Shown piece by piece: positions 16,600 to 60,000 of a DNA stretch of 64,000 nt; position 1 is the stretch's first letter; every line of letters begins with the position of its first letter. A model generated the notes under the pieces. It saw nothing but the letters and a program-made list of their open reading frames with translations, did no database searches and had not been told where the DNA came from. The stretch comes from Blasia pusilla (taxonomy: Eukaryota), in the NCBI GenBank assembly GCA_050084515.1, contig CM114271.1, positions 41,416,001 to 41,480,000 on the forward strand. The letters are read 5' to 3'. The position numbers and the translations under genes were made by a program.

Positions 16600-19500
16600 G
16601 GTTGTTACTAACCAAACTATATCCCCTCCAAAAAACTTTACATCTCAATGATGACATATTATTTTTGTCAATTTTGAGCAATAGTCGACTTCTTCTTAGC
16701 AAGTTAAACTCTCTTTTGAATATGATTCATAACTCCTTTACTATTGTTATCTTTGTAAACTTCATTAGAAGTTCCCCTATTCGGATAAGACTATAAGAGA
16801 TCAAATGATGCTTGCTATACATTAAACAGACGATGTTGTCTTAATGGAATTTTTTGGGGGTTTATTATGCAATAACTCCACAAATGATAACAATCAGTCT
16901 TATCCTTATCGATCCTCGAATGTTAAGGCACATAACATATCATGAATGATATGGATGGCTCTATTAATCTGCCTATTGGTTTGAGGGTGATAAGTACTAG
17001 ACACAACTAGTTTAGTTTAGAGCAATCCAAACAAGGCATTCTAAATAAAATTTTGAAGTGGATTCCTCTATCAATAATAAGTATTCTAGTAAGACCATGA
17101 TGAACCGGAATTATCTTGATAAAGATCCTAGCCAATTTAATATGTTCAACATTTTCTTGGTCATATGAAGGTATATCATCTTGCTTAGTCTATCCAAAAA
17201 GACCACAATAGAATTATATTTCATAATCGTATATAGTAGCTCACAAACAAGATCCATAATCAATTATTCCCAATATTAATGAGGTGATACGATGCATCCC
17301 ATTACCTCATTAAGTAACAATCATGCTAATTTTATATTATTTTCCACAACTCGTTGATAAATTAGATAACTCCTTATGTATGCGTTAGCATCTTCCCTTA
17401 TTTTGGGCCAATAGTATGCCCATTATAATCCCTCCAAGGTTTTTCCAACCTCCACATGACCTACAATAATTATGTCGTGAGCATCGAATAATACTTGAAT
17501 ATATAAGTATGGATCTTGTGGGATCCATACTTTATTATTGTGGAAAACCAATTATTTTTCCTTATGTGTTTTATTGGCCTAACTAATAACTTAAATTTCT
17601 TTATCTTCCTTTGTTGCTTTGGTCAACGTTTTTCGGTTTGTAGAGTGAATTTGCTTTTCAGACATGTTATTTATATGCAATCAATCAGTAAAGATACGTC
17701 CTTCAATTACTTTTTCCCTTTAACATAGATAATCTTTGAGATGAGATATTATCTCTATTCTGCGTATAAAATTTGGTATTTTGAGAGCTCTTGTTGGGGC
17801 TATAAGTAGACTAAGGGATTATGATTAATCTTAACTATCAAGTCTATTATCCAAAAAATATTTTGTATGTTTGGTTGTTAATACAATAAGAAACTCTTCT
17901 CTTATATTTGCGAGGTAGTTTTGTCCCGTCGGCAACAACTTGCAAGAAAAGAAGATAATCTAGTAGCATCCATCCTCTCATTTTTGTAGTAGTACACTTC
18001 CACTAGTAGTACTTGATGTGTCTGTGGCTAACTTAATAAGGTAATTGTGATCATACCACCTTAAAATAGGGATATTGATCAAGATATTCTTTATTGATTG
18101 GAAAGTAATCATTTGTGATGTATCCTAAATTCAATTTCTTTTCCCTAATACAGTTGTCAAGGATTGTGCAATGGGAGAATAACTTTTGATAAATCTTTGA
18201 AGGAATCCTACAAATCCTAAAAAAACTCCTCGATTGAGTGTGATCCATAGTTGTACTCTATTTTTTGATCATTTATGTCTTCTTAGTCGTTAATTAGATG
18301 TCTTCTAGGCTTACTCAAGGTCGTAAGTAATAAACTTATATATTATCCAACTCAAAATTTGAAGTTTTAGCATATAACTAAATTTTTCGTAGAATTTAAA
18401 GGGCTTCTAGTAGATGATTTTTATGTTTCTTTCTAGTTTTACTATAGACCAAAATATCATATAAGAATACAATGATAGTTCTAGATAAATATGGATAGAA
18501 GATATGATTCATTAGGCTCATTATTGATATAGGCTCATTAGTAAGACCAGATGATGCATATGACTAAGTATTCGAAGTATCCATATCTAATACGAAAAGT
18601 AATATTGGACACATATTTAACCACAATTTGAATTTGGTGGTAGCCATCCCTTAGATCAAGCTTGGTGAAATATTTTCTCTTTGTAGTTGAACAAAGAAGT
18701 AATCAATTTTTGGCAATTGATATTTATTCTTTATAATTTTCTTATATAATGTTGGGTAGTCAATATAGATTTTCATGCTTCCCATCCTTGTTTTTTTATG
18801 AAAATAATGATTGGATGAAAATTTTCCATAACATCTTGTCTAATTGGGCTTTACACTCTTAAAACTTCCTTTAAGCCAAATGATAAAGAACCTTACATGG
18901 TAGCATAGTTATTGGAAGGACATCAATCTTATGGTCTACCATCCGTTTGGGGATAACTTTAATGGTCACTCTACTAAGAACATATCCTGATACTCTTCCA
19001 ATACATGTCTCAATTTATTTGGTACTATTAATTTCAATTTGGTTTTGAACCGCCAACGTCTCTTATTAAATCAAGGAAACATACAACTTGATGTTTGATG
19101 AAAATTATAGTGGGGTTATAACACATGATCTAACTCTATATCCATAAAGCTTCCATCTTTGGGTCTTTAAAAAAATTGTTCTCTAATATAATTTTGGATT
19201 ATGCATGTACGATTATATCTAAGGCATCCCCAAGATAACATGCACATCGAATAACTTTTAACTCTAACTCTTCATGATACTTTCCTATCCTCAATTTTAT
19301 ACTTTGAGAAAACTTGTGAATTTCATGTTTGGAAATTCAACCTCTTTGTTTTGATCCCTATTTAAAACTTAGCCTAACTTCATGGTTATGGCTTGTGAAA
19401 AGAAGTTTTTGTTGCATTAAGATCAATCAACATTCTAACTTAAGATCCTTCTACTTTCCCATCTATGATAATAACACGAATTTCTTACCTCTTCAAAGCA
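16600..19500 (-). mobile_element. Highly degenerate Ty3/Gypsy pol relic
   Basis: Minus-strand motifs YQDMF..PKRMVDHKID (~18990-18920), RT LDLRDGYHQIQI (~18660-18625), GLTNEP (~18548-18531) and integrase Zn region GHVEVGKTL...YYWP (~17461-17405). Order is RT then INT. Confidence 0.75.
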
Positions 19501-19799: not shown

Positions 19800-20200
19800 T
19801 CCTAGCCTATGCGCAGAGCATTATTGCAATGAATAATGATGTCCCTAATATAACGACCTAAATCATAAGGCAGTAGTAAAGAATAAAAATTCCCCGCATC
19901 AATTTTCTGAGCTAGTCTAATTGTTTCATATATAGGACATATAAAAAACACGTGTTTGTCATCCTTAATACTTCTTACGTTACATAACCTACACAATCAT
20001 TTGCTTTTATCAATGTGCCATTGTCCTTCCTTGATGCTTAGTCTATGAGACCCACTGCGTTGTTGTGCAATAATATGATGTAAGAAAGTGAAGATTCCCT
20101 AAAGTATATATTCTTGTTCATAATATACAAGCATAGGATTAATATGAAATTTATAATAATCCATTTTCGTGTTCGGGATGCTCCAAAGAATGGTAAGGAA
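19800..20200 (-). mobile_element. 3' fragment of a non-LTR (LINE) retrotransposon
   Basis: QRSGSHRLSIKEGQW followed by CCHC knuckle CRLCNVRSIKDDKHVFFICPIY, typical of LINE ORF2 C-termini. Confidence 0.7.
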
Positions 20201-20863
20201 TCGCTTTTGTAGATGCTGATGGAGCGCCGCCGGTTTCAAGTCTCAATCTCGTTCAGTCACATCCCACTTTAAAGACTAGGTCACCATGCTTGTTAGATTC
20301 GAAAGCGCAACCCCTGATGTTGGGGAAGGTACGTGGCGTTTATATGATTGGGTCTAACGAGTTGGAGGAGCAATGTTGTACTTGATGGGGTTTGCCCTGG
20401 ATTCCCCGGAGGAGTCAACGTGTTACGGACCAAAATGGCAGTTAGGTGATGGGTGTCTTAGCTTGTTACCCATTCAATTAACAAATGGAGTGATCTAGTG
20501 ACGGCTAGGAGAGATGGCGATGCTAGCAACATTCAGTAGCACCATCACTTGGCATGATGATTTGATTGAGGGACATGTTAATGTAGAAGACACACCCATG
20601 ATTGACACCCCTGTGGAGAGGAGTATTATGATATATAGCAACATCATTCTAGAGGAGAGGTACTTTTGTAAGGCTCGAGTGAGGAGCTTGGACGCTTGGT
20701 TGATGGGCACATGTGGATGGCCTGGAATGAGGAATTGCACCATAGCGTGATGGGTGAGTGAAACTCGGAGTGCTACGATGTCGTAATTGGACACCAGAGC
20801 CATTGTGTGGTGCATCTTAGAGAAGGGTATTTGAGGGCATATGACTTAGATTGGGCAGGGAGC

Positions 20864-21528
20864 ATCAATTTAGTCATTTCAAGTTGGCCATGTTAAGGCC
20901 AATCGAGTGTTAGACGGGGTAGTGGGTTAGTTGCTACTCAATCTAGGCTATTTTGGGAGATTATGAGGATCTTGCGGGAACATGAGTCTCGTTCTCTAGC
21001 TTACATATTGGAGAATGTTCATATCTTGGGCGATTTTTGGTCACGACTGCACATCAGGTGCCTGCATGGATCAACCATGTAGTATTTTTGGATATGACGA
21101 ACGTAGGTTCACGAGCACATCGCCCACGTTTATGGTGGATCAACTTGGTGTCACACGAGGTGTTGAAGAGCGTATATGCGAGAGTGGAGTGTTCCTCCTA
21201 TTTGTAGGTGGACTATATTCTAGATCATGGTCATTGATCATAGGAAGTGAGGCACAATGATCAACCGCCATTGACTATGATGAACAAGATAGGCATTTCA
21301 GGGTTAGCCTTTCCCACTTGTGTGAGTTTCCTCACTTCCTATACATATAAGGAGGCTGATCTTGGCTTGGTTTGGGATGACCAGACACATCGGTTAGTGG
21401 AGCCGAATGCCAATGAGCAAAAGTGGGAGAGGAGATTTCCCATAGAGGAATCCCGATGCCATGTCGTGGGTCAAGCAATGGACCTAAACTATTTGACATG
21501 GATTATCAACTTAGGTGTATATGGGTAA
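20864..21528 (+). pseudogene. DNMT3-like cytosine-5 methyltransferase domain inside Gypsy pol (motifs IV, VI, VIII, IX/X)
   Basis: INLVISSWPC*GQS..G.GL...S.LFWE (motif IV; PC at 20888-20893, CAA>TAA), YILENV (21002-21019), VFLD..VGSRAHRPRLWWINL (21082-21147), EPNANE..R..VGQAMD (to 21483). Confidence 0.88.
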
Positions 21529-21802
21529 TGTCGGAAGAGGCTACGACATGCCACAGTTGTTGCATTGGTGAGCCCCATGGATACCGAGATGATATAGGAA
21601 ATGGTTGGGGGCGAGATATGGAGAGCTCAACATATTATGGGTGATAGGGAGAGAAATCTTTGGAATTCTCGCAATGTTTTGCAGGTACGCGGAGATGGCA
21701 ACAACAATATTGAGCGTGCTACAGGGTCCTACACACCGAGGAGATAAGAGTGTTGAGATGGCTGTAGGGGAGTAGTTGAGTTCTATTGTTGGAGATGGGA
21801 TT

Positions 21803-22450
21803 TGTCGTGCGCATACACATCGCTACACAACATACATCGCTGTCACCGGACACACACATAAACACGCACAATCCCATGCTAACTCATGGCATCCATACAC
21901 AAAGGTGAGAAGCGAGAATCTTACTTTAATCTCCAATTAAAGTAAGATCCAAACTCTCTCTACATCATCTCACACCATAGCTCTCAAAGGTGTGCACTCT
22001 CTCTCATGTCAAACCAAACCCACTCTCCTAATGAGAGGCTTGGATTACACTCACAAGGCAAGGGACCATAGCTCCGCCGCCTCATGCCAAGAGGTTCAAC
22101 AAAGAGAGAATGAACTCTCAAGCTCTCTCTCCTTGAGGTATACCCCTCCCCTCTCCCAAGCTCTCTCCATGGTAACCTATTCTCCCAAGTCATCTTCTTG
22201 GATCTTGACCTGCTATAGGAGGTCAAGGGCCACTTACAGAAATAGAAAGTTGATTGTATACTCAAAATGGTACTTGCCTAAAATAATAAGTTCTTCAATA
22301 TGGCTCCAAATGAGCCGAAACGAAGGGGAAACCTGCTCTCTCAAGTTTATCGGGACTTCAACATGTCATCCTTGACCTACTGAGCATGTCCTCCGCTACT
22401 AACAAAGGCGCTGTACTAGATCTCATCGATCTATCCTAAGAGACGTGACA
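21803..22450 (-). mobile_element. Solo LTR (TGT...ACA, 648 bp) inserted antisense into Gypsy copy 1
   Basis: Termini tgtcg.../...gtgaca. Flanks gatt|...|ggtt are a 4-bp TSD with one mismatch and restore the frame gat ggg gtt gca cca. Reverse complement closely matches 47355-47820 and more weakly 25813-26230. Confidence 0.85.
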
Positions 22451-25363
22451 GGTTGCACCATACATATACAATAGTCACGATGGAGTAGGAGCCAAGTATG
22501 GATCCTAAGTTGACATGAGGAGATCGATATTGGATATACCAATTCTGATCTTTAAGAGACATGTGAGTTGTTTTGTATTTAATATTCATGATTTGGATAT
22601 GTTGAAGGGTTTGACCGTGGATCCGTTATGAGTTATCTAGCGACACGCCGATCTTGAACGATTCTACATATTATTGATATGGAAAGGGCCCTGATTCAGA
22701 GCAAGAGCCAAAACTTGGCTGGAGCAGCTAAAACTAGTGGAGATGTTGCATGGAGAGTATGTTTGTGCCACTATTCTGCTTGCCAAGAAGGATGTGCTTG
22801 GCAATCAGAAAAATATTTCAATTGGATGTATGGGTCTACCGACCTATCAATTGGTAGACGAAGTTTGATAGGTATGCCATGCCCACTCTTGAGGAGATCT
22901 TTTATGCTATGCGACATGCAAAGATCTTCACTTCATTAGATCTTCGAGGTAGATACCATTAGTTGCCTATCAGATTGGAGGACAAACAAAAGACAATATT
23001 TTGGGGCATCGATCCAAATAAGAAGGATTTTTTGTACTAGTGGCGATTCTTAACATTTGGGTTAAAGAACATCACGACAGAGTTTCCGAGGGTTGTGGAT
23101 AGGATCTTGATAGGTCTGGATTTTGCTAGGAGTTATATTGATGACATCATAATCTTTAGCACCACAATTGAGGAACATCAACAACATTTGGAGAAGATAT
23201 TTCGACGATTGCAGTAACATGGGCTGAAGCTATATCCGCGCAAGTGCAAGTTCTTATATGACCTGATTGAGTACTTGGATCATATAGTATACCGATGTGC
23301 CATTGGGGTTTAATAGATGAAGGTAGAGGCTATCTCACACATTCCATGCCCTACAGATGTAAGTCGAGTTCATGCATTTATGGGTTTGGAAATAACTTAC
23401 AAATTGCACGTCAAGGTTTTTAATTTGATTGTGAAGCCACTAACCTTATTGATCGAGGTGGATCATGAGTGGCACGAGGGGGATGAGCAAGAGAGAGCAT
23501 TTCAATTGCTCAAGGACAGGTTGACGTCCGCACCCATACCGGGAGACCTAGCATTGTTAGAGGATGTCCTTTTTAGCTGCATCTAGATTGGAGTATGCTG
23601 AGGCTTGGAGAAGGCTACCATCCAACATGATGATGAGGGTAGAGAGTTTGTAGTGGCTTACGCTCCTCGCTCAAAAAATGGTGTAGAGGAAAAGTATAGG
23701 TGGTATGAGTGTGAGTGCTTGGTTGTAGTGTCGACTATCACATATTTCACATGTTACTTATTCGACAACCGCTTTAATATCATTATTGATCACCAATCAC
23801 TTAAGTGGTTGATGGAGTTTGAAAAACTTACGGGGAAGCTTGCGAGGTGGGCTCTCTTATTGCAAGAATATGACTTTCATATGGTACATCAACCTGGGAT
23901 GCTTAACCAGGATGGAGGTGATTTGACATGTAATCCATGCGTGAGTCAAGGAGATGCGATTGGAGATTTTAGGCATGGAGGGAGTAATGGGGAGGAAATG
24001 ATATCGGGATGACACGCGTGAACATATTTGGGCTTGTTGGCTATGGAGGGCAAAAGTGTTGAGATTTCAATGGTGAGGTTTGATGGAGAGCCATAAAATC
24101 CAAAGGACGATGAGGAGACGACAAATGCTCAAGATATTTACGAGGATGGACTAGTCTTGGAGTACATACGTACTAGCAGCGTTGCAAGCATCGTGGATGC
24201 TAGAGAGCGAGATTGGATTCTATAGGGAGCCAAATGGTTCCTGTGGGAGAGGACGTATGTGTTGCAAGTGCGGGAGGATGATAGAGTACATGTAGTGCCT
24301 CATGCTTTGTAAAGAGCACGTTTGGTGTAACATCCCTATGAGGAAATTTGGTCAATTTGGAATGAAGCGGACTTACAACTTGCTCCAAATATAATATTGG
24401 TGGCGAGGTATGCAGACTCATGCTAGATGCATGGTATGTGATCAAGTTCGGACATAATTCAATGCTCCGACTCCACACTTATATCCACTATTGATCATGG
24501 ATTTAAGTTATAGATGAATTTTGGATTTTGCATGACCTTAACGTTTGATGGAGTGCCATAGTCATTATGTGCTGGTGATGGTTAAGCACTTCTTGAAGTG
24601 CTTAGAGTTGGTTGTATTGTTTGATAAAGAAAGTGACGGGATAGTATATGCCTTCTTAGATGGAGTGTTGAGTCATTGTGGCGGATCAACTATGGTGTCG
24701 ACAAACCATAGTTTCGCAAGGAGTTTCAAGCCTTGTGTGATGAGGTGCTGATCAACCATCACACTACTTTACCAGATTATCTTGAGGCGGATGGACTAGG
24801 GAAGAGAGTTGTCCAGACAATGAAGAGAAGTTTACGCAAACATGGCTTGCATAAAGGTCACCTAGGAGATTGGGACCTACAATTTCCAGGTTGGAGATGG
24901 GATACAAATTCAGCAAGCAAACATCCTTAGTGTCTTTCTTGGTTTTGTTGCTTTATGGTCGAGAACCTGATTTACTTGCGGCCATTCATCGCCATGCGAG
25001 TGAGGTGTTTAACCTCGATGACCTCGATATATAGATGCGAGCATGTTCTCAAAGGGTTAATTGTTGTAGAGAGTTATACCCATGGCGTTTGAGAACTTTA
25101 TGATTGCGCATCATCGGGATACTTTGAGGGATGCGAATATTCGAGGAGGTGATTATCAACCGACAATATGGAGATTTCACCAAGGAGACTATGTTTACTT
25201 ACACCATACGGCATCTATGATGTTGGATGTGACCGCATGGTGCATCATCTAGAGAGCGCGAGATATCTTACCATCCGGTATTCTTTTAGGTGCGCCATAT
25301 TACCTTCCTAATATTGATGGTACAGTTGATCCGAGTTGAGCAATGGTTTCTATAGGCTTATGT

Positions 25364-25497
25364 TGCATGTTGTGTGGTTCCGCCCGTGGTGCAGCCAAAA
25401 TTTTAATCTGTGATGGGTGTTTGAGAGGGTGGCAATGGCATGTCTAACGCTACTTCTCACTAGGGTGTCTCGGGGATAATGGATGTGCCCCATATAC
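25364..25497 (+). pseudogene. PHD finger (C4HC3) at the C-terminus of the Gypsy integrase
   Basis: CMLCGSARGAAKILICDGCLRGW[fs]MACLTLLLTRVSRG*WMCP matches PHD spacing CxxC..L.CD.C...H..CL.P.L..VP.G.W.CP; the His codon is lost at the frameshift. Confidence 0.82.
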
Positions 25498-25812
25498 ACA
25501 TAGAGTGAATATTAGGTAGTCATAGATCCAAACTTGTGTCTATGACAAAAAAGAGACTAACGACAGGGCCTCATGAGCACCTGAACTTTTTGCTCTTAGT
25601 GTATTAGAGATGTGTGTCATGGTAGGTAGGGATAGATGGCTATCTGGAGTTAGAGGGACCTTACCACCAACTAGGGGGCGATTTGGAGATATTTTGGTAC
25701 TCGATCCTCTCAATATTTGGATGTTATGAGTTGGCATCGTATCTTTTGTGTTTGTGTATGTATTCAGTGATATCTATGTATGCTGTATAGCGTGTATATG
25801 CACACGATAACT

Positions 25813-26230
25813 ATCACGTCTTTTGGGATGGATGAATGAGTTCATAGTAGGACGCCTTCGAGGATATTGGAGAACATCCTCATGAGGTTAAGGATGACCC
25901 GCTACAGCTTCGCGTAACCTAAGAGAACATGTTTTTCCTTTGTTTTGGCTCATTTGGAGCTATATAGTGTAGCCTACTACTTTGGGTAAATTTTGGTTAA
26001 TAATCATAGTTAAATTTCCACTTTTGGAAGTGTAGATTGATCTCCTCAAGAGTCAAGGAGGTGACATGCAAACATAGGTTAATATGGAGAGAGTTCGGGA
26101 GAGGGAAGGGGTACACCCAAAGAGATAGAGCTTTGCAGCTCATTAACTCTTTGTTGAACCTCTTGGCATGAGGCGGCGAAGTTATGGTCCTCCTTGCCTT
26201 ATGAGTAACCCAAAAGGAGGACCATAGCTA
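25813..26230 (+). mobile_element. Diverged LTR of the same family, directly downstream of Gypsy copy 1
   Basis: Starts tatcacgtctttt (cf. tgtcacgtctttt at 47355) and shares ttggcatgaggcggcg..ttatggtcc and ggctcattt.gagc with the other LTR copies. Confidence 0.75.
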
Positions 26231-39544: not shown

Positions 39545-42500
39545 CTTCTTTTGAAGTTGGATTCACGGGCCCTCCTCTGCAGCTTAATGCCAGGGCTGTT
39601 CACCTTGGCAGGTAGTGATGATCTCTGGGGGTAACAAGCGGGCTCTCTTTGGGCACCCTGCCGCTTGGAGGCAGCCCCTCCGCACAAATAGGACAGCGAG
39701 TCCCTGTCTGGACTCTCGGGCTGGGAGCTACTCGGGCCCTTTGGTCGAGTGTATCGCCTTGGTCGACCCTCTCCCCTATCGCGCCTCCGGCCCTCAGTGA
39801 TGCTTTTATGGCATTAAACATTCTCCCCAGATCCTAAATCAATTGTCTGCCAAACCTCTACATATAATCAGCGGCCTTGAGCCCAATATATCTCAGTCCT
39901 CCCAAGCTTGTGAGGAGTATCAGTTCACCTATCAAAGGCGCATACCAAAGCCCACCATCCCCAAGCTGGGTGGGGAATACCGGCATGTTTATGTGAGACG
40001 CTCAAAGCCCCCCCGGAGTTCGGACCTGGGCAGCGAGTTCAATCTGGTCTACAGGAGGAGACCACGGTTCCACATGATCATTTTCGGTGTACGTCCCACA
40101 ATAGACTTTGTCTCATTTAAGATCATGTGCGGAGCTTTGGGCTTTGAATTCCTGGCTATTGTTGGGGTTACTCGGATGATGAACGGCAATCAATGTATCT
40201 TCAAGGCGTCTATCAAGGGCAGAGGAGGCCAATACTTGGCTTGCCACAAAAACCAGGTGTCTCAAGATCTGAGACGTGCCTACAAATTGAGGGCTATGGT
40301 AGTCGAGGGTGGTTCCAGCTTGAAGGAAAGGCCCATCTCCACAAAACCGCTGGTGATCTACACACCTATTATCTTTAGTGTTCTCCAAGGGACCAGCGAT
40401 GAAGAGCCTGCACATGAAGAGGTTCCATGTCGCAAGCAGCCACACCGACGCCAAAAGCGTGCCCGCCGATCCCCAACCCACTTAGTAACAGGTCTCCGTT
40501 TGGGTACCTGGAACTTCTGTGGACTGACCCATGCAATGAAGCATATGGAGGTTGCTGAAGTTTTGCTGAAAAATCAAATACATACATGTGGGGGTCAGGA
40601 AACTTGGGAAACCAAGTTAATGGAGATACCCCATGTACCACACTATGCATGGTTTGGAAAGATGTGCAGCACCCAGGCGGACAACAACAGAGGTATGAAG
40701 GGTTTCGGGTTCTTCATCAAAGACTTCATGGTGGACAAGTGTGAGATCATCAGCACAGGGCTCGAGAATGAACACAGCATATGGGTCAAAGTACAGTGAG
40801 TGCAACTCGCGGGATATGTATATAAGGTGTATTTACATGCCTACAAGCGGTGAATCTTTGTTGTAATAGAGGCGACATTTGATAGTGTGAAAACTGATTG
40901 CCTTGGGTTCCGGACAAAGGGGAACATAGTCTTCTTTGGGAGACTTCAGCAATTTGGGTGGGGCAAGGCACTCATCCCCTGATCTGATCTTCCAATGTAC
41001 ATCGCATCCATTGTGATCTTCCCCTTTGCGTGTGTAGAGTTCCTCATCCACAACTATGTAGTCCACAATGGAACTCTCATTCTCCTTGAAGTTGACCCTA
41101 TTCCAAGCCGGGGATCCCACCTTATGCCTATCATTAAGTGCCATCACTTGAAGTTCCCTCAACATCGTGATCAGCCGTGTGCCATTGCCATTCACTCTCA
41201 CATCTCCAAACATCCCGATCGGAGATCGGGATGTTTGGAGATGTGAGAGTGAATGGCAATGGCACATGATCACGATGTTGAGGGAACTTCAAGTGATGGC
41301 ACTAATGATAGGCATAAGGTGGGATCAACTTGACTAGGGTCAACTTCAAGGAGAATGAGAGTTCCATTGTGACTACATAGTTGTGGATGAGGAACTCTAC
41401 ACACGCAAAGGGGAAGATCACAAAGTGGATGCATGGACATTGAAGATCAGATCATTCATTGGTCCGACAGAGTTGCAAAGCAAAGGCTAAAATGCTCGAC
41501 CAAACCAAAGTGAAGAGGGTGATCAAGAAATGGAGGATAGAGGACTTCAAGATGAGGGCAACAAGAAGGTGTACATTGGCAAGTGGAAGAAAATCTCTGG
41601 GCATTTGACACTTTCATTGAATCTCTTGTCAAGACCTTTGGGTTCACAAGAACAACTGTGGGACATGGTCTTTGGCATGGTGGGAGCGTGGAGTGACAGA
41701 TGCCTCCGAGATTCTTTGTTAGGTGAAATTGATAATATGCGGCAGAGCTGTCAAATGATGGTCCTTGGAACTCAGGGAGCCATTGCCAAACGAAGGGAAG
41801 CGTATGTCACAAGTGCCAAAGCCAGGGACGATGCATCCTTGTGAGCAGAGTATGTGGCCCTACGCAGGAAACTCGTCTTCTCGTGCGCATGCACAAGAAG
41901 AAAATGAACAAGCCACATACTCATCCATCAATGAGAATTTCACTAAGAATCAGAAAAAGTTATGGATGGAAGTGCAGAAATTGAGCAAGGCCAGGGACAA
42001 AAACGAGCGTAAAGGCCTTGAAGAGAAAAGACGGTGGAATGGTGACCACGGCTAAACAGATCCGACATGTGTTGGAAGGCCATTACAAAGAGTTAGGCGG
42101 GAAGCCCGCTTTCGGACATCCCTTGAAGAGCAAAACTTCGAGAGAGGGTGGTGGAGGATTTTGTTAAGATACAACGGGAGAAGGCGGATGATGAGGTTGA
42201 GTGGGCAACCCATATAATGATTGGTTCTCCCATGTCTGAGGTGGGAGCAGCAATCAAAGAACTTGTGAACCACAAAGCGGCGGTGGTGATGAGCTTGTGA
42301 ATGAGCTGTTGAAGTATGGCGATCTTTGCTATGGCTCGTTCTCTAGTGAGTCTCTTCAACCTGGTCTGGCGGGCAGAAGTCATCCCACAAAGATGGCGGA
42401 TGGGAGTCATCGTGAACCTCTTCAAGAAGGGTGAGCAAGAAGACCCTGGAAACTACAGGGGTATTACATTGCTGAGTGTAGTCAGGAAGCTCCTCTGCCG

Positions 42501-44334
42501 TATACTTAACAATAGGATCTCTATGTACCTGGAGGAGAATTCTGTCATCAAGGAAGGCCAGGCTGGCTTCCGGCAAGGCCAAGGATGCATGGACCACATC
42601 TTCACCTTCAGTCAGATCATCTAGGGTAGGAAAAAAGAGGGGAAACCCACCTATTGCTTCTTCTTGGACCTCAAGAAGGCATACGACATTGTATGGTGTG
42701 ACGGGATTTCTTATAGCCTGTGGAAGGCGGGGTTGAGAGGGAAAATGTGGAGGGTGGTGGAGAAGATGTACCAGAACACAAGGAGTAGAGTTCTGGTGAA
42801 TGGCCAAAAGAGTGGGACATTCGACATCAAGCAAGGAGTGGCTCAAGGATGCCCGCTCTCCCCCACCCTCTTCAACATTTTCGTGAATTCCCTATTGGAA
42901 GAAATGGAGGATAGTGGACTAGGCATACGGGTGGGCAACACCTCTATTATTGCCCTCATGTTTGCTGATGACTTTGGTGGCCTCGAGGAAATAGGAGAGA
43001 AACTCCAAGAGATGATCTCCCTGACCAAAATCTGGTGTGACATGTGGGGCATGGAGGAAAATGTACTGAAGTGCGATGTGATGATTTTCAATGGCAAGGA
43101 GGAGGACCAAGACCAAAAGTGGTACTGGGGTGACCAAGAGATCCCACGTGTGGCTACCTACACCTATCTGGGCATAGAATTCTCGGAAGATTGCATGTGG
43201 GATGCACACATCAAGAAGACTCTTGAGAAAGGCCACAAGAAGATGAAGCAGTCTGTCGATTCCTCTGATCTTGGGGACATCACATCAGAAGTAAAGCTGT
43301 GTCATTTTGCATACCATTCATCCTCGCTGGAATACGGGCAGCAGTGTGGGATGCCAACACCAAACAAATGGATAGGCTTGAAGTCGTGCGGCGGTGAAAG
43401 GCGTTTCGGGTATGATGTCAACTTCATCACGAACAACCCGCGTTGGTGTGAGATCAGAACTAGGTGTGGAACCCTTGGAGGATAGACGTGACATCGCCAA
43501 GTTGAAATGGAGGAGGCAGCTGGAGACAATGGACTCCCATCGCTATCCTAAAGAGGTGATGGGGAAAACCTGGACCCAAAGAAGACCCGTAAAACATGCC
43601 AAATCTTGGACGAAAAAGGTTCAAGAGATTGTGCAAGCATCCAAGCTCCCAGCACAGCATTCGTGGGAGCAAGATGAGAAAGCATTCGTGGATACCATAA
43701 CTAAAGCAGTGGGCAAACGCTCACAGCAGAACAGCATGGAGGAAGCCATGAAAATGTCTGACCTCTCTCTTTTGACGGTATATCCCGAGAGGGCGAATCA
43801 AGAACTATTTATGGGAACCCCTTGCTTGGGAACGCGGCTCAAGTTCAAGTTCGGGGACGGGGCAATCCCCTTGCACCATAAGAAAAGCGAGGATGGGAAC
43901 AGAACTAAACTCTTGCGCCTTGTGTGACGATGGGGACGAAACCTCTAGTCATTACTTGGTCTCTGCGCCAAAATTCACAACACACAGAGCAAGAGCATAT
44001 CCGATATTGCTAAGTGGTAGCACCAGAATTGTTCAACACATTCAGTAGCCTTGATTCATTGCCCTAAGCTTTGACCTTTGGTAAGTAATGTCTATTGGGG
44101 ATCCCAATCAGGTAAAGTAGTTTGTGTGGTGAAGAGTTTCTTGGTTGACACTTGGAAGCTCCGCACAAACACGTTGTTTGGTCAGCACTCACACTATATG
44201 AGAGTGTCTCCCTCCTCTCATATGGTACCTTCTTCACTTGCTTCTCTCTCTACACCCATCCCACTCTCAAGCACCGTCCAACTAGGGCGCGGGGTCTATG
44301 GTCGCAAGGCTACAACAGGCACTACTTAATGAGT
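39545..44334 (+). mobile_element. Near full-length non-LTR retrotransposon (APE endonuclease + RT + CCHC), disrupted
   Basis: APE motifs LGTWN/QETW/GFGF/FFGDF/SIVDY. RT motifs NYRGITLLS, QAGFR, DLKKAYD, GVAQGCPLSPTLF, FADD, YTYLG. C-terminal CALC..E...H (~43914). Flanked on both sides by (CT)n. Confidence 0.92.
40980..41454. repeat. ~240-bp fold-back inverted duplication within the LINE endonuclease
   Basis: 40980-41220 is the reverse complement of 41224-41454, with a 3-nt loop (gga, 41221-41223). Confidence 0.95.
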
Positions 44335-47354: not shown

Positions 47355-50300
47355 TGTCACGTCTTTTAGGATAGATCGGTGAGATCTAGTAGAGCGCCTT
47401 CGTGAGTAGTGGAATACAAGCTCAGTAGGTTGAGGATGACCTGCTGAGGCCCGAGAAACCTGAGATAGCAGGTTTCCCCTTCGTTTCGGCTCATTTAGAG
47501 CCATATTGAGGAATAGGTAAGTATCATTTTGAATAGATCATCGACTTTCTATTTTTGGTAAGTGGTCCTTGACCTCCTACATCATGTCAAGAGCCAAGGA
47601 GGTGACTTGGGAGAATAGGTTACCATGGAGAGAGCTTGGGAGAGGGAAGAGGTATACCTCATGGAGAGAGAGCTTGATAGCTCATTCTCAAGCTCTTGGC
47701 ATGAGGCGGCGGAGCTATGGTCCCTTGCCTTGTGAGTGTAACTCAAGCCTCTCATTAGGAGAGTGGGTTTGGTTTGACATGAGAGAGAGTGCACACCTTT
47801 GAGAGCTATGGTGTGAGATCTGAGGAGCACCATGTAGCTTGCTGATTTGTATTTTTATAGGTTTTTACATTTTTGTTGGGAGAAATCAGCGCGGAACCGC
47901 TGCCAAATTTTGTGTAGGAGAAAGAGACATTGGGCCTCAACAGAAATTTTACAACATTCCATGTCAGTTTTTACTCAAATCTCCAATTTTAAATATTTTT
48001 TCACGTCATTGTAGATCGTGAAGCTGTGCACGTTGTGCAACAAACGGTGCCAATTTAGAGTTGCGAGTAAAAAGTTATGGTTAATCTTGAAAAACTACCA
48101 TTGCTAGGCGATTTTTAGGCGCCCGAGTGAGAGTTTGCGTGAGGCTTACACTTGCTTGCGCCGGTTGATCAACGTCACTCAGGGGGTGAAAAAGGCTCAG
48201 GGTATCCAGTCATAGTACGCGATGTTGGACCGGACCCTGCAGACACAAGTCCGGGAGGGGGTGCTTCTTATGAACACCTCCCCTACATTGAGAGATGTTT
48301 TTAGGACCGCCGAGAACATTGAGCGCAACATGGTGGAGGAGAGCATAGCCACCATGGATTCTGGGCGAGAGCAATCACGATTGTCTGCACCACCTATGCA
48401 GCAATGTGGACTCCGAGATAGGTCGACTGTGGCACCACGAGCTCAGGGAGGATATTGGGGGGCCGTGCCACAGACACTTGCGCCTTCATATGCAGCTCAG
48501 CAACAGCCGCCTACTATTACTTGTTGGTCATGTGGTGGAGCCCATCATCAACGCGATTGCACTCGTCAAGGTCATGGACGTGTGCCTCAGCATGGAGGAG
48601 GAGATGGTGCTGCACCAGGAGGTTATCAATGTGACTATTGTCAATGGTATGGTCATACACGTGCCAAGTGTTTCATTTTACATCCTGAGTTACGTCCGGA
48701 CCGAGGGCCAGAGAGGGCACTAGAGCATGTAGCCGGTCCGGGTGGGCTCGAGATCATGCACAACCCGTGGTGCACGATCTCGAGCCCACCGGACCGGCTC
48801 CTTGTCCCCCAACAGGACCCACCCGGTGTCCTGTTGGGGGACAAGGAGCTGGAGTTGCCCGAGAGGGTGGTGGAGCTACCCATGGAGGAAGTAGAGTCCC
48901 ACCACCTAGACGCGTGGAGGGAGATGCCAGGCGTGAGGCTAGGATGGCTACTCAGATACATCAGTTACAGGAGCAGATTACCGCTATGCCGAATCCGTGG
49001 CATCCACATCATATGGAGCAGCCAGAGATATGGAGGATCTTGGTTGGATATGCGGGGTTGCCCAGATGGAGGCAGCCACAGTTGTGACGTGTGGAGCAGC
49101 CGTAGAGTTGGATCCACAGCGAGGGGAAGCTAGGGAACAGACTAGGCTTCCTCAATCTTTCACACTGTTCGAGGCGATGAGGACCCCATCGATGGGTCCT
49201 GATTAGAGTTCCTGGAGAGTTGGTGATGTTTTTGGTGTGCAGGCACGAAGGGCGATGGGAGAAGCGAGTGCGACGACTCCTATTGCTGATGCTCAGGACG
49301 AGCATGTGTCAAGCACGTTGTTGGGGGCGGCCACCGTTATGTAACGCGCTCCTTTATTTTTTGCTTCCGATGTTATGACGTTGGGAGGTACGCCCGCCGA
49401 GGCTTTTCGGCTGGCCGCTACGCTATGTGAGGGTGGAGTTGGAGTTCCTGCATCACGTTCAGAGGTGATTGCAGAGGAGGTGATGGACCTGCCCTTGGAG
49501 CGGATGCTCGGACAGTCCACGTCAGATTCATGGCAGGCTGCAGCTGCTAGGATGGCAAAGATGCCCGCTAGACCCGCGATAGAGCTGCAATGGCTTCTCC
49601 TGGTGTTGTGTTGCTAGATAACCAAGGAGAAGTCTTTTAGTTGGTGAGTCATCGAGGTAGACCTTTTAGTCCGCAACGCGTCTTGTTGGATTGAGGAGCG
49701 CAACCCGTGATGTTGGGGAAAGCGTAATTCAGAGGATTGGGCTTGACAAGAGCCGATATGGAGCGTTGTCCATTCCAGATACAGACATCCTTGGGTGGAG
49801 CGAGTACCATACAGTATATCACCCGATAGGAGGTCCTAGTGAGGATTTGTACGGGACATCCTACAGATGAGTCCGTGGTGCGAGCCAAGGCGATAGTGAT
49901 TGATGCAGAGTCCTATGACGTCTTGGTTGGTGGAGCAGTGTTATATCCGATGGGGTTTTCCCTGGATTATTGGGAGGAGTCAGCGTCCTATAGACCAGGA
50001 TGGCAGTAAGGTGATGGGCGTCTTAGCTCATTACCTGTTTGATTCACAGGTGCAGTGATCGAGCGACGGCCAAGAGAGGTGGTGACCTTAGCAGCATTTA
50101 GCAGTGCCATCACTTGGCCTAGTGATTTGATTGAGGGACATGTCCATGCAGAGGATACTCCCGTTCCTGAAATTTCTATGGAGAGGAGTGTTATGGTAAC
50201 CGCATCATTTTGTGGAGGAGAGGTGCCGATGTGGGGTTCGACGAAGGAGCTTCGACGATTGGCAGATGAGCACGTGCAGGCCACGTGGAGCAAGGCGTTT

Positions 50301-50460
50301 GTACCAAAGCATGATGGGTCTGAGGAACCCGAGGTAGCAGGGAGTGCTACGATGACACTCTTGGATACCACACCCATTGTGTGGTGTACCCCGGAGGAGG
50401 ATATTTGAGTGTTAGATCTCTTTGGAAGGATTAGCGTCGGGTTAGCTGCTGTTTTGCAGG
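47355..50460 (+). mobile_element. Ty3/Gypsy copy 2 (LTR, gag, protease, start of DNMT domain), truncated at 50460
   Basis: LTR starts TGTCACG at 47355. Gag Zn knuckles CWSCGGAHHQRDC and CDYCQWYGHTRAKC; PR VLLD*GAQPVMLG (~49680). 49.9-50.4 kb is homologous to 20.3-20.83 kb. MTase motif I VLDLFGRISVGLAAVLQ at 50409-50459. Confidence 0.88.
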
Positions 50461-50469
50461 GAGGAGGTT

Positions 50470-53351
50470 GCTGTAGATTTGTCCTTGGCGGTGATGACCT
50501 TGGACACCAACTCCGCTCTCTCGAGGGCTTGCTCCTCCGCATCTCCTTCAGAAAATTCTTCAGGCTGCATAAAATTCGGGATGTCGTCCCTACCTGCGGC
50601 CACTGCATCATACCTGTCAAAGATTATTATCGTTGATGTCCTCGAGGTAGGTGAAGTCCAGCGAGATGGGGCAATTCTCAACTTCCCAGTCAGACATGCT
50701 TTGAGCCATCTCCATGTCGTAGATGGAAAATGTCTCTCCATGAGGCGGAGAAGCCCACAATTTGTAGGTTGCCGGTATTTTTCGCCACGTACTTGCATTC
50801 TTATAATGGACGAGGTACCTGAACATCATGCGTTGGGCAGCTCTTTGTCGTGATGCATCGGCCTGAAGATCTTGCTTTTTCTTTGCGAAATCCCTTTTCT
50901 TCGCCTCTATTTCTTCATCAAGGTCTACTTGAGGGAGGATGTGATCCTCGAACATCATCATGAAGCCTGGGTTGTTTATGGGCTAGTCCCGGATGTCATC
51001 CAGCCAAAGTTCGAAATCTTCAGCACTCTCCAGGTTTGCTTCCTCCGGAAGTGGTTCTATTTTTTTCATCTCTGCTTGGAGACCCATGAGCATGGACTTC
51101 TCGAGAAGCCGCAACGCGTCCCCGAATGACCATTCATGGAGCCAATGGGAGATCACTCGATCAGAGACACCCGGAGGATGGTGTGCCACCCTCTTTTGGG
51201 CCTCTCTGCCCTCGAGACTGATTTTCATCATTCGGATTCTCCTAAATTCCGAAATTCCAGACAAGGCAAATCGATGGACGCGGTCGAGAGACACTTTCTC
51301 CCCAATCCGACCCTGCGGATCTTCATCCCTCTTCCGCTGGCGTTTGATTATCGCCTTCAGCTCCTTGTGGAAATCGGGGCCAAGTTCGGGGTTGATAATG
51401 GTGATGTAGCGGTGCATCTTGCTTGCAGTGCAGTTCGTAGCTGCACATACTGCAGCTTGGATGAACCTAGCACGCTAAGACGCAGACACGTTCTCCCTCC
51501 GCTCTAGCTCCCATGAAGCGCTCTTCTTGGCGGCCTGTATCTTCGACCAGCAAAGGATTTTCACGGCTACATCTTGGGAAATAAATGTATGTGCCCAAGT
51601 CTTTTTTTTATTTGAGCCTCCTTCGCCAGCTTCTCATTTACAAGGGCGTCCCCAAGAACCCCTTGTATTCTGCCGGGTGCATCGTTAGCACTTTCTTCAC
51701 CCGATCGCAATCCTCGATCCAGTGGTGGGTGACATTCCCCTCGGATACAATCTTGCACATCCAAACACAATATAAGAATTTTTGCAAGCTACATGGGTTC
51801 CTGCAACCCGTCGGACTCCAACAGGTTGTCAGATAATTTGTATTCAGAGAGTGGTCTCCGCGGAAAAAGTGAACATATCAACCTGTCGGAGTCCGACAGG
51901 TTGCGCAATTTCAAGCAAATCTGCAATTTGACACCAAAAATCAAGCTCCCCTACAGGGATCACCTACCCATGCCGGTGATTGCAACCCGTCGGAGTCCGA
52001 TGAGTTGCTTTCGGCCAAAAATATCCTTAAAAAAATAGCCAATCGAGCAACTCGTCGGACTCTGACGAGTTGCTTTCGGCCAAAAACATCCTAAAAAAAA
52101 TGGCCAGTCAAGCAACTCGTCAGACTTCGACGAGTTGCTTTCGGCTAAAAACATCCTAAAAACAGTGGCCAGTCAAGCAACTCGTCGCACTTTGACGAGT
52201 TGCTTTAATGCATCCGATGTTTTGTTAGCACTCCTTAAACAACTTGTCGGAGTTTGATGGTTTGCAGCAATCAAAATACAGGAAGAGGAAACTTACGTGT
52301 TCATGGCACGCATGGCCATTTCCACCGTCGCCATGTGATGAGGGTATGGGTGTAGCACGAGTGCCTCCAATGAGTTTTGGCGCTCCTCTACAAACTGGGT
52401 CCATGCCATGAACCTGTGGTTTCCATCCCAGATTAAGAAATACAGGTTCCGCATCCACCTGAATTTCGTCCCCTCAATCGCTCTTCTGAATTGGTGATCT
52501 CTCATCCTCCAGAATGTGTCGAGCGGTTCCAAGTCCTCCTCCATCACCAACGCTTGGGTTCCATGTTCATCATTAGGCTGAACATAGAACGGAGGGAAGT
52601 TGTCGACGTAGGATGTTGTCCCTGCCGATTGTTTCAGCTTCACAATATCCTCGTCAGACGGAATTTCACGGACGTACTCCATTGTCCGCAATCGGCAAAG
52701 TGGAATTCTTGGGGCATTCTGGCCCTCCATCAGTGCCATCTGCTTTACCACCTGTCACAACGAGGACAAGGTCAATAAACTACATTGAATTGCCAATGAA
52801 TTGAAACATGGGCCTTCACATAACTCAAAGAACAAAGATCGTATCTTACCCGCTCAAAGATTGGGTCGGTGTCTTGGCCCGCCAACTTCTCTAGGACACC
52901 AGCTGGCAAGTCCACTAGAAACTCATCGATCCGATAGAGGTCAATTTCTTCCGCCGAGCTAAGAGACGAGGAAGACTACTCTCCTGCTTCTTCAGAGATG
53001 TCCACCATCTCCATGCTGGCGGTCCTCATGAATTGATCTTCTGTCACTTGAACTTCGGCCGTTTCCTCAGCCAATTTTATATTGATTGTGTCCCCGGAAT
53101 TCATCGGGGACATTTCCTACATCTCAACACTTTCGGTTGGACGGGCCGAGCTTTCTTCAATAGCAATCGATTTTTCCCTTCGAGCTTTTTCCAATTTTGC
53201 TCTCCTCACCGACGTGTCCAGACGCTTCTTTTCATGCTTCTCCTCGGCGATCCTTTTCTTCAAGGCTTACGACGCCTCAGCCTTTGCGTGGAGTTCTGGA
53301 CTTGGGAGTGAAGCTCCCAGCCTTGCTTGCTTGAGATTTTTTCCTCGTCAT
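50470..53351 (-). pseudogene. Left, 3'-truncated copy of a spliced ParB/Srx-domain gene
   Basis: ATG at 53351 (MTRKKSQASK) with TATA at 53567-53573. Exon 52751-~52295 encodes PRIPLCRL..VR..D..KLK.S....Y..IWDGNHRFMAW (DGNHR at 52427-52413). Reverse complement of 57029-60149. Confidence 0.8.
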
Positions 53352-57028: not shown

Positions 57029-60000
57029 ATGACGAGGAAACAAACTCAAGCAAGCAAGGCTGGGAGCTTCACTCCCAAGTCCAGGACTCCTGCGTCACCA
57101 TCTCTAGGGCCTCGTTCAGCCAATAAGATGAGTCAGCAAGAGATCAAGGAGCGCAAAAGGGAAGCAAAGATGCACAGGCAAGAGCTTCTTGCAAAATGTG
57201 TTAAGGAGGCGCTTGAAAAACACAACGCAGAGGTTGAGGCGTCGCAGGACTTGAAGAAAAGGATCGGTGAGGAGAGCAGAATTGGCAAAAGCTCGAAGGG
57301 AAAAAGCGAGTGCCATTGAAGAAAGCCCGGCCTGTCCAACCGAAAGTGTTGAGATGCAGAAAATGTCTCCGATGAAGTCTGGGGACACAATCAATATAAA
57401 ATCGATTGAGGAAACGGGCGAAGTTCAAGTGACAGACGATGAGGTCATGAGGACCGCCAGCGTGGAGATGGTGGACATCTCTGAAGAAGCATGAGAGTGG
57501 TCTTCCTCATCTCTTAGCCCGACCGAAGAAATCGACCTCTATCGGATCGACAAGTTTCCAGTGGACTTGCTAGCTACTGTCCTAGAGCAGTTGGCGGGCC
57601 AAGACACCGACCCAATCTTTGAGAGGGTAAGATACGATCTTTGTTCTTTGAGTTATGTGAAGGCCCATGTTGCGATTCATTGGCAATTGAGTTTTAGTTT
57701 ATTGACCTTGTCCCCGTTGTGACAGGTGGTAAAGCAAGTGGCACTAATGAAGGGCCAGAACGCCCCGAGAATTCCACTTTGCCGATTGCAGAAAATGGAG
57801 TACGTCCGCAAAATTCAGTCTGATGAGGATACTGCGAAGCTAAAACAATCGGCAACGACAGCATCCTACGTCGACAACTTCCCTCCGTTCTATGTTCAGC
57901 CTTACGATGAACATGGAACGCAAGCGCTGGTGACGGAGGAGGACTTGGAAGCGCTCGACATATTCTAGAGGAATTAAGAAGGGCGATTGAGGGGATGGAA
58001 TTCAGATGGATGCGGTTCCTGTATTTCTTCATCTGGGATGGAAACCAGAGGTTCATGGCGTGGACCCAATTTGTAGAGGAGCGCCAAAACTCATTGGAGG
58101 CGCATTTCTCCGTGAAGGCAGTCGTGCTACATCCATACCCTCATCACATGGCGATGGTGGAGATGGCATGCATGCCATAAACACGTAAGTTTCCTCTTCC
58201 TTTATTTTGATTGCTGCAAACCGTCGGACTGCGACGAGTTGTTTAACTAGTGGTTACAAAACATCGGATGCCTTAAAGCAACTCGTGGAAGTCCGACAAG
58301 TTGCTTGACTGGCCGCTGTTTTTAGGATGTTTTTGGCCGAAAGCAAATCGTCTGAGTCCGACGAGTTGCTTGACTGGCCACTATTTTTAGGATGTTTTTG
58401 GCCGAAAGCAACTCGTTGGAGTTCCACGAGTTGCTCGAATGGCTGTTGTTTTAGGATGTTTTTGGCCGAAAGCAACTTGTCGGACTCTGACGGGTGGCAT
58501 TCGCCGGCACGGGAAGGTGATCGGAGTAGGGGAGCTTGATTTTTGGCGTCAAATTGCAGCTTTACTTGAAATTGCACAACCTGTCAGACTCCAACGGGTT
58601 GATATGTTCACTTTTCCCGCGGAGACCACTCTCTGAATATAAATTATCTGACAACCCGTCGGAGTCTGACGGGTTGTAACTAGGCAATCACAAATCTGAA
58701 TGCAATCTGTCGGACTCCGATGGGTTGCAATATTTAGCTCGTAGCTACCATTCCGACCATTAGGTGTGGCGACCTGTCGGAGTCGGACGGGTTGCAGGAA
58801 CCCATGTAGCTTGCAAAAATTCTTATATTATGGTTGGATGTGCAGGATTGTATCCGAGGGGAATGTCACCCACCACTGGATCGAGGATTTCGATCGGGTG
58901 AAGAAAGTGCCGACGAGGCACCCGGCAGAGTACAAGGGGTTCTTGGGCGACGCCCTTGTAAATGAGATGCTGGCAAAGGGGGCTCAAATAAAAAAAAAAA
59001 AGACTTTTATTTTCCAAGCTGCAGCCGTGACAATCCTTTGCTGGTCGAAGATACATGCCGCCATGAAGAGCGCTTCATTGGAGCTAGAGGGGAGAGAGAA
59101 CGTGTCTGTGTCTGAGCGTGCTAAGTTCATCCAAGCTGCAGTATCTGCAGCTATGAAGTAGATTGCAAGCAAGATCCAGCGCTACATTGCCATTCTCAAC
59201 CCCGAACAAGGAGCTGAAGGCGATAATCAAGCGCTAGCGGAAGAGGAATGAAGATCCACAGGGTCGGATTGGGGAGAAAGTGTCTCTCGACTGCGTCCAT
59301 CGATTTTTCTTATCTAGAATTTCGGAATTTAGGAGATTATTGAGACTGATTTTCATCAGTCTCTATGCCCTCGAGACTGATGAAAATCAGTCTCGAGGGC
59401 AGAGAGGCCCAAAAGAGGGCGGAACACCATCCTCCGGGTGTCTCTGATCCAGTGATCTCCCACTGGCTCCGTGAATGGTCATTCTGGGACGCATTGCGGC
59501 TTCTCAGGAAGTCCATGCTCGTGGGTCTCCAAGCAGAGCTAAAAAAAATTGAGCCAATTCGAGAGGAAGAAAACCTTGACAGTAGTGAAGATTTCAAACT
59601 TTGGCTGGTTGACATCCGGGACAAGCCCATAAAACACCCAGGCTTCAGGATGATTTTCAAGGATCACATCCTCCCTTAGGTAGACCTTGATGGAGAAATA
59701 GAGGCGAAGAAAAGGGATTTCGCAAAGAAAAAATGAGATCTTCAAGAGCAGGCGGTCGATGCATCTCGAGTAAGAGCTTCCTAACGCATGGTGTTCAGGT
59801 ACCTCGTCCATTGTAAGAATGCAGGTACGTGGCGAAAAATACCGACAACTTCCAAATTGTGGGCTTGTCCGCCTGATGGAGAGACATTTTGCATGTACGA
59901 CATGGAGATGGCTCAAAGCATGTCCGACTGGGAGGTGGAGAATTGCCCCATCTGGCCGGACTTCAACGACCCTGAGGACACAACGGAGAAAAATCTACGC

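Follow-up and report, generated by a model that had tools for sequence, protein, structure and literature searches.

Retrotransposons that bear the very enzyme their hosts use to silence them pose a puzzle. Among the described cases, the closest to the present one is KnitGypsy-Dnmt3 of the alga Klebsormidium nitens, and its methylase was attributed to an acquisition within that alga's lineage (de Mendoza et al., 2018, Nat Commun 9:1341, PMC5890265). A second case in the same paper, SymbioDIRS-Dnmt3 of Symbiodinium, resembles the elements treated here in carrying a DNMT3-type domain within a retrotransposon Pol, but it belongs to the DIRS type, has a tyrosine recombinase and resides in a dinoflagellate, and the authors judge its acquisition independent; de novo CG methylation was shown for it in yeast, where according to the paper only the dinoflagellate DIRS enzymes did so. 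Self-methylation of cDNA was proposed there for DNMT-bearing elements, and later papers speak of 'streptophytes (Gypsy-DNMT3)' (10.64898/2026.05.21.726589, PMC12344493). Here, we analyzed a stretch of 64,000 nucleotides from Blasia pusilla (GCA_050084515.1, contig CM114271.1, positions 41,416,001 to 41,480,000 of the forward strand; called the window, with positions counted from its first letter). An original prediction made from the letters of this window had proposed a Gypsy retrotransposon encoding a DNMT3-like C5 DNA methyltransferase between protease and reverse transcriptase (RT), and had pointed to DNMT-bearing retrotransposons of dinoflagellates and charophyte algae.

The window very probably contains two old, dead copies of a Ty3/Gypsy family in which a DNMT3-like C5 methylase is a standing part of the polyprotein, and we assign the family, as Ty3/Gypsy carrying a DNMT3-like methylase, with high confidence. 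Like KnitGypsy-Dnmt3, these elements hold a non-rearranged DNMT3-type domain inside the polyprotein of an intronless streptophyte element of the long terminal repeat (LTR)/Gypsy type (PMC5890265). The kind of element is therefore already known; what deserves further attention is its range in land plants, the in-frame stop that is conserved behind the methylase, and the PHD finger of the integrase. Of the window copies, which are fossils, the value is that they point to the family.

A decayed methylase between protease and reverse transcriptase

Copy 1 of the element (Table 1) contains the predicted methylase motifs IV, VI, VIII and IX/X, all at the predicted places, in the right order and on the plus strand. 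They are split over two reading frames, with the shift between approximately 21034 and 21085. Motif IV is followed directly by a stop in place of the Q of the relatives' PCQ, a change of the CAA-to-TAA type. Motifs I-III are gone; they were deleted, since homology to copy 2 stops at 20835, where motif I is due, and restarts at 20843 before motif IV, leaving 20836-20842 as the junction. Five stops and one frameshift were counted in the copy 1 methylase, and the full set of C5 methyltransferase motifs is found in neither window copy (IV-X in copy 1, I in copy 2), while it is complete in the relatives. With stops, a frameshift and the loss of motifs I-III, activity as a methylase can be excluded for the window copies. 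Compared with contigs from host sequencing runs, copy 1 has A/T opposite G/C in 332 places and the reverse in 165 (run X1), as would be expected if methylated cytosines had been deaminated.

When stops were read through as X, the copy 1 frame matched the Pfam family DNA_methylase (PF00145) with E 7.2e-5 and 22.8 bits, above the cut-off of 22, so that the Pfam search proposed along with the original prediction came out in its favor. Stronger matches were obtained with intact relatives: P0003, a 546-residue metagenome protein retrieved using the C-terminal half of the window methylase, matched the window with a combined tblastn E of 1e-31, and the Marchantia protein P0052 with E 1.9e-55, over approximately 280 aligned residues in colinear order. 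Against these values, a chance likeness of short motifs in decayed sequence, for which the sub-threshold Pfam score of the single open reading frame (ORF) could be cited, has a negligible probability and is already refuted.

The remaining parts of copy 1 follow the order protease - RT - RNase H - integrase that is typical of Ty3/Gypsy and also found in the intact relatives. The protease remnant lies 5' and the RT with its YIDD motif 3' of the methylase on one strand, which places the methylase where it had been predicted. The protease assignment is backed by copy 2, with 84.6% identity between 20289-20327 and 49682-49720 (blastn). RT and RNase H are 45% identical to ORF2 of the relative L002 in tblastn, with 17 stops within two high-scoring segment pairs; in the Pol segment pairs as a whole we counted 25 stops besides those in the methylase. 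At the 5' side copy 1 is truncated at approximately 20190-20200, and the GC content rises from 0.30 to 0.45 at 20 kb. No match to gag was obtained near copy 1 by tblastn with the relatives' proteins; gag is missing because the copy is truncated near 20.2 kb.

At a likeness of at least 80%, every one of the 30 bins into which copy 1 was divided, including those of the methylase, is covered by contigs from three host DNA runs (for example a 322-base contig on 21103-21296), and the element family is therefore repeated in the host. A search of sequencing runs returned five runs holding 7-11% of the words, with no RNA run among the matches listed. A run tentatively regarded as RNA (X6) has few contigs on the stretch, and these are not informative on expression.

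A second copy with the same junction

Copy 2 consists of gag, protease, linker and motif I of the methylase. Its two CCHC zinc knuckles, located upstream of the protease, fall within a 305-residue open frame (48216-49133), and a zf-CCHC domain is also present in the relative P0065. In the protease active site a stop takes the S/T place, followed by GAQPVMLGK (49695-49721), and YDVLVGG is found at 49914. Alignments with the relatives P0061 and P0062 reach 50558; the homology of copy 2 stops at 50486-50558 and unrelated repeat DNA continues from there. Between 20361-20835 of copy 1 and 49926-50409 of copy 2 the nucleotide identity is 72.8% over 489 aligned bases. The two copies are old, independent and both inactive, and the junction of protease, linker and methylase is common to them. 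Since copy 2 has the same protease, linker and motif I, the methylase is not a one-off insertion.

The contrary reading would be that a host DNMT3 pseudogene or an unrelated fragment came into one Gypsy copy by nested insertion or through an assembly chimera. Copy 1 is indeed much rearranged: it lost motifs I-III, took up a repeat at 21967-22450 and is truncated at its 5' end. Yet the divergent copy 2 shares the junction, the host-run contigs cover the methylase part, the domain is in frame in intact relatives, and many copies are present in Marchantia. This reading is refuted in practice, and we give it barely any probability.

Intact relatives define the family

Relatives were collected with a full HMMER scan using the N-terminal methylase piece (26 matches at E <=0.001), a profile search (at least 56 proteins at E <=1e-10 among 7999 candidates scored) and a metagenome scan (51 loci, 36 with E 9e-31 or better and here called strong). 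The same methylase is thus present in 36 metagenome loci and at least 56 database proteins, and it occupies the same place wherever the sequence suffices to tell. Two loci, L001 and L002, are intact: their ORF1 contains Asp_protease and DNA_methylase, and their ORF2 of 1047 residues contains RVT_1, RNase H, Integrase_H2C2, rve and PHD (PF00628). P0065 holds zf-CCHC, protease, methylase, RT, RNase H and integrase in a single ORF of 2352 residues. The relatives score 29-54 bits against PF00145. The family order is gag - protease - linker - methylase - RT - RNase H - integrase - PHD finger. With two copies in the window, the intact L001 and L002 and the single ORF of P0065, the prediction of a Gypsy lineage encoding its own methylase holds: the peptide matches the C5 methyltransferase profile, and other members carry the domain in frame.

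The C-terminal PHD finger recalls the chromoviruses, in which a C-terminal chromodomain of the integrase serves as a histone reader and is presumed to guide integration (10.64898/2026.05.21.726589); the elements described here have a histone-reader domain in the same position, but it is a PHD finger and not a chromodomain.

Both sides of the junction between ORF1 and ORF2 are held by 24 of the 36 strong loci, the ORF2 side being missing in the other 12. The two sides are in the same frame in 16 of these 24 loci, and the frame is lost in eight. In all 16 same-frame loci a TAG or TAA precedes the residue aligned to ORF2 residue 22 by 42-63 nucleotides (L002:5083-5085 is an example), and 11 of these loci have no other stop in the junction gap. 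The conservation of a single stop suggests that Pol is reached by read-through of this codon and that the methylase belongs to the Gag side. Gammaretroviruses express gag-pol through read-through of a stop codon. The single in-frame stop between polyprotein parts is common to both systems; here, in difference to gammaretroviruses, protease and methylase lie upstream of it, and read-through itself is deduced from the anatomy.

In a sister clade (P0075-P0077, P0082-P0085 and P0114), single ORFs of 1700-2900 residues encode RT - RNase H - methylase - integrase - PHD, with the methylase at another position than in the main clade. In P0076 a weak G-patch match was found past the methylase.

The methylase of the relatives is of the DNMT3 type and under purifying selection

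In a sequence search of the Protein Data Bank (PDB), P0003 matched DNMT3C, DNMT3B and DNMT3A with E 4.5e-10 to 1e-9, DRM with E 2e-5 and M.HhaI with E 1e-3; L002 gave the same ranking, and the window piece itself had DNMT3A as a weak best match (E 0.17). The natural L002 domain, modeled with AlphaFold using 40 aligned relatives, reached a predicted local distance difference test score (pLDDT) of 91.9 and a predicted template modeling score (pTM) of 0.90. In a Foldseek search of the PDB with this model, the top matches listed were all DNMT3A, DNMT3B or DNMT3C, with E values from 1.5e-18, a target template modeling score of 0.83 and 20-23% identity. The motif order I-X is unpermuted in the relatives, unlike in DRM. 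The predicted DNMT3-like character is thus supported by the solved structures, among which DNMT3A/B/C are the best matches both by sequence and, for L002, by predicted fold. The elements share with the host DNMT3 of animals and non-flowering plants these best sequence and fold matches and the unpermuted order; they differ in that the domain is set between a retroviral-type protease and RT, at the 20-23% identity of the Foldseek matches listed, and without the partner domains PWWP, ADD or plant DUF, none of which was found by Pfam on the relatives.

Across the 40 aligned relatives there is no variation in the C of PC, in E and N of ENV or in the AH..R of motif VIII, and at least 90% of them have the FGG..G of motif I. 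Five of the 36 strong loci retain a methylase domain that is intact over its full length. The ratio of nonsynonymous to synonymous substitution rates (dN/dS) between L002 and L003 is 0.13 (dS 0.26, unsaturated), and it ranges from 0.09 to 0.23 in the six pairs with computable dS among the five intact relatives. The methylase domain of the relatives, apart from the dead window copies, is under purifying selection. The same holds for KnitGypsy-Dnmt3, for which Ka/Ks <0.2 was given (PMC5890265).

Several points weigh against the reading as a whole or against parts of it. The PF00145 score of copy 1 is marginal (22.8 against the cut-off of 22), and its lone open piece of 61 residues scores 18.5 bits, below this cut-off. 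In four of the ten pairs of intact relatives dS is saturated. Read-through is deduced from conservation of the stop alone, and P0065 as well as the forms with the order RT - RNase H - methylase - integrase have no in-frame stop. The comparison with KnitGypsy-Dnmt3 draws on its published description (PMC5890265), and a common origin would be a possibility. The KnitGypsy-Dnmt3 domain gave no methylation in yeast, an outcome the authors call inconclusive (PMC5890265). A search of 10-35 kb found no direct repeats of 60 nucleotides or more, and no LTR pair was found for either copy, the LTR assignment in the window depending on a single shared repeat.

The yeast result could be taken to mean that the methylase-like domain is non-catalytic, either a pseudo-enzyme for binding DNA or chromatin or a decoy for host silencing factors. 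Against this stand the invariant residues of motifs IV, VI and VIII and the FGG..G of motif I kept in at least 90% of the 40 relatives, the dN/dS of 0.09-0.23, which fits a constrained enzyme, and the failure of human DNMT3B in the same yeast test (PMC5890265). We consider a non-catalytic domain unlikely. An enzyme that acts on RNA in the manner of DNMT2, on the genomic RNA of the element or on a primer tRNA, is quite improbable: de Mendoza et al. raise RNA methylation for a DNMT borne by a long interspersed nuclear element (LINE; PMC5890265), and a methylase on the Gag side of the stop would be abundant beside the packaged RNA, but the nearest sequences and folds are those of the DNA enzymes DNMT3A/B/C, and no DNMT2 chain is among the structure matches listed.

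Proposed mechanism

If the element is translated as its anatomy suggests, Gag-protease-methylase would be the abundant product and Pol would arise only by occasional read-through of the stop, as in gammaretroviruses. The protease would free the methylase. As a member of the DNMT3 family, and in line with de Mendoza et al. (2018), the enzyme would use S-adenosylmethionine and methylate cytosines de novo, its likeliest substrate being the element's own new cDNA or a new insertion. The 5-methylcytosine might make the new copy resemble resident, already-marked DNA, or might limit the element's own expression, while the PHD finger of the integrase would read a histone tail and thereby choose insertion sites. 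That self-methylation of cDNA is the purpose of the enzyme is a tentative proposal, to which we give somewhat more than one chance in three.

Distribution of the family in streptophytes

Closest among the named relatives are multicopy proteins of Marchantia polymorpha annotated as "hypothetical" (Mp_4g09160, Mp_8g17980, MARPO_0008s0049 and others), and Marchantia proteins are the best tblastn matches to both window copies with 41-51% identity. One cluster at 90% identity has 18 members, of which the 16 named ones are all from Marchantia, on chromosomes 1, 2, 4, 5 and V. Several members are 1278-1281 residues long with long open gag-protease-methylase frames, and this uniformity at >90% identity suggests recent spread in Marchantia. 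A more distant relative, P0024 of Mesostigma viride, contains protease and methylase. No K. nitens sequence appears by name among the database matches.

A tree was calculated with a quick IQ-TREE run on 60 rows comprising full-length element-borne domains, the C-terminal half from the window and one outgroup; before the run we removed 21 cluster members that were nearly identical, as well as all remaining rows with <280 profile positions. The window sequence falls into one clade with L006, L007 and six Marchantia proteins, at a support of 100 in the SH-like approximate likelihood ratio test (SH-aLRT). Its exact sister is unsure because the window branch is long.

The kind of element known in print from an alga is thus also present in land plants, namely in Marchantia. 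Unlike KnitGypsy-Dnmt3, which was described from one lineage (PMC5890265), the relatives found here occur in Marchantia, in Mesostigma and in the host of the window, which widens the known range from one alga to land plants and a deep-branching streptophyte. In the literature as far as it was available, we found no description of a DNMT-bearing Gypsy element of a land plant and no mention of the Marchantia genes by name; the DNMT supplements of PMC5890265 and PMC12344493 may list them.

These occurrences could reflect one ancient Ty3/Gypsy lineage extending through the streptophytes from Mesostigma to the liverworts and the window's host, whose DNMT3-type writer would be produced with Gag, before a leaky stop, and whose integrase would bear a PHD reader. 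Such a lineage would still be active in Marchantia polymorpha, would not have been acquired within the Klebsormidium lineage and may share its origin with the plant DNMT3 genes, and a sister group would have moved the methylase between RNase H and integrase. We regard this scenario as speculative, and the odds are rather against it. Marchantia polymorpha is genetically tractable, has published methylomes and contains gag-protease-methylase copies; because the relatives with long open frames sit in this tractable plant, the question of purpose is directly testable there.

Table 1. Positions of the element parts in the window.
Feature	Position	Strand	Evidence or remark
Copy 1 protease remnant, active-site LLDSKAQ at 20290-20310	20197-20327	+	translations; blastn to copy 2
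Copy 1 protease end and linker up to methylase	20361-20835	+	similarity to copy 2; tblastn with P0052 residues 718-801
Copy 1 methylase remnant, whole	20843-21549	+	
Copy 1 methylase motifs IV-VI	20843-21049	+	PF00145; tblastn with P0003 (43% identity) and P0052 (51% identity)
Motif IV, LVISSWPC	20870-20893	+	TAA stop at 20894-20896
Motif VI, YILENV	21002-21019	+	
Copy 1 methylase motifs VIII, IX and X	21037-21549	+	other frame, more stops; tblastn with P0003, 37% over 152 residues
Motif VIII, AHRPRLWWINL	21115-21147	+	
Motif IX, EPNANE	21400-21417	+	
Motif X, GQAMD	21469-21483	+	
Inverted repeat of ~0.5 kb between copy 1 methylase and RT	21967-22450	-	87% to 47819-47355; 72% to 25811-26206
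Copy 1 RT and RNase H	22554-24348	+	PF00078 E 3.5e-17; PF17917 E 1e-19; YIDD at 23134-23154
Copy 1 integrase, H2C2 zinc finger and core	24344-25100	+	PF17921 E 0.0047; tblastn with L002 ORF2 residues 627-887
Copy 1 C-terminal PHD finger remnant	25361-25490	+	tblastn with L002 ORF2 residues 878-1012, 50% identity; translation beside L002 PHD
Candidate 3' LTR of copy 1	25811-26206	+	71-72% identical to 47355-47819, same orientation
Candidate 5' LTR of copy 2	47355-47819	+	same repeat; ~300 bp 5' of first gag homology
Copy 2, whole	48117-50558	+	gag, protease, linker, motif I; truncated
Copy 2 gag, two CCHC zinc knuckles (from 48522 and from 48630)	48117-48812	+	tblastn with P0052 residues 165-354, 42% identity
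Copy 2 protease and linker	49563-50369	+	tblastn with P0052 residues 608-908, 49.7% identity, E 3.7e-92
Copy 2 methylase motif I region, VLDLFGRIS at 50409-50435	50370-50558	+	tblastn with P0003 residues 103-133, 55% identity

Candidate terminal repeats

Three stretches of the window share a repeat (Table 1), which we interpret with moderate confidence as LTRs and one nested solo LTR. The candidate 3' LTR of copy 1 starts approximately 320 bp past the end of the PHD finger, and the 3' direct repeat of the relative L028 is placed likewise. In L028, direct repeats of 300 nucleotides with 92% identity enclose the coding region at a distance of 8674 nucleotides, while no terminal repeats were found in L001 and L002. 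These plain direct repeats, 8.7 kb apart, differ from those of KnitGypsy-Dnmt3, which are said to be arranged as in DIRS elements (PMC5890265). No clear signal of a primer-binding site, a polypurine tract or a target-site duplication was seen in the flanks of the repeat alignments, which were inspected by eye only.

The inverted repeat between methylase and RT is a candidate solo LTR of a younger subfamily. The interval between these domains is approximately 515 bp longer in copy 1 than in the intact L002, because the ~0.5-kb repeat was inserted there. A DIRS-like inverted-repeat structure is less preferred as an explanation of this repeat, given the extra length compared with intact relatives and its identity of 87% to the repeat of copy 2 but just 72% to that of copy 1 itself. 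The relatives L026 (9088-9555/13153-13620) and L030 (956-1423/5021-5488) have a 468-nucleotide inverted repeat inside the element, with arms 92-93% complementary and 3597 nucleotides apart, which recalls the inverted repeat pair of copy 1, but the positions differ.

In the host runs, the repeat at 21803-22450, 25811-26206 and 47355-47819 (~0.5-0.65 kb) is the most abundant part of the stretch. Its summed contig depth reaches 43,000 in X1 and 520,000 in X2, whereas the coding bins stay in the range of hundreds to thousands. In several contigs, 22448-22450 is connected to 21802-21805, indicating head-to-tail copies with a unit of 647 bases. This abundant repeat may be the LTR of the family or an independent high-copy repeat.

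Other features of the window

Rfam at gathering thresholds gave no matches in the window, and ten further long ORFs had no Pfam matches besides RVT_1 and a weak zinc finger. In the AT-rich stretch 5' of copy 1, two features are present on the minus strand: a decayed Gypsy-type RNase H fragment at 17852-18226 (tblastn with L002 ORF2, E 3e-4) and, near it, a cysteine- and histidine-rich ORF at 19802-19996, which we take to resemble the C-terminal zinc finger of plant LINEs. A repeat pair with long similar ORFs lies in opposite orientation at 50446-53311 and 57694-60458, and the first of these copies starts where Gypsy copy 2 breaks off. The ORFs shared by the pair include 50446-50853 (plus) with 59539-59994 (minus) and 50983-51474 (minus) with 58745-59161 (plus); Pfam on the plus frames of 46-56 kb and on the ORF 50983-51474 returned no family for the repeat at 50446-53311. 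A LINE-type element extends over 39801-43927 on the plus strand. It contains an open RT frame of 286 residues (42625-43485; RVT_1 E 8.2e-22), whose best database matches are 44-46% identical, the only named one being from Ectocarpus.

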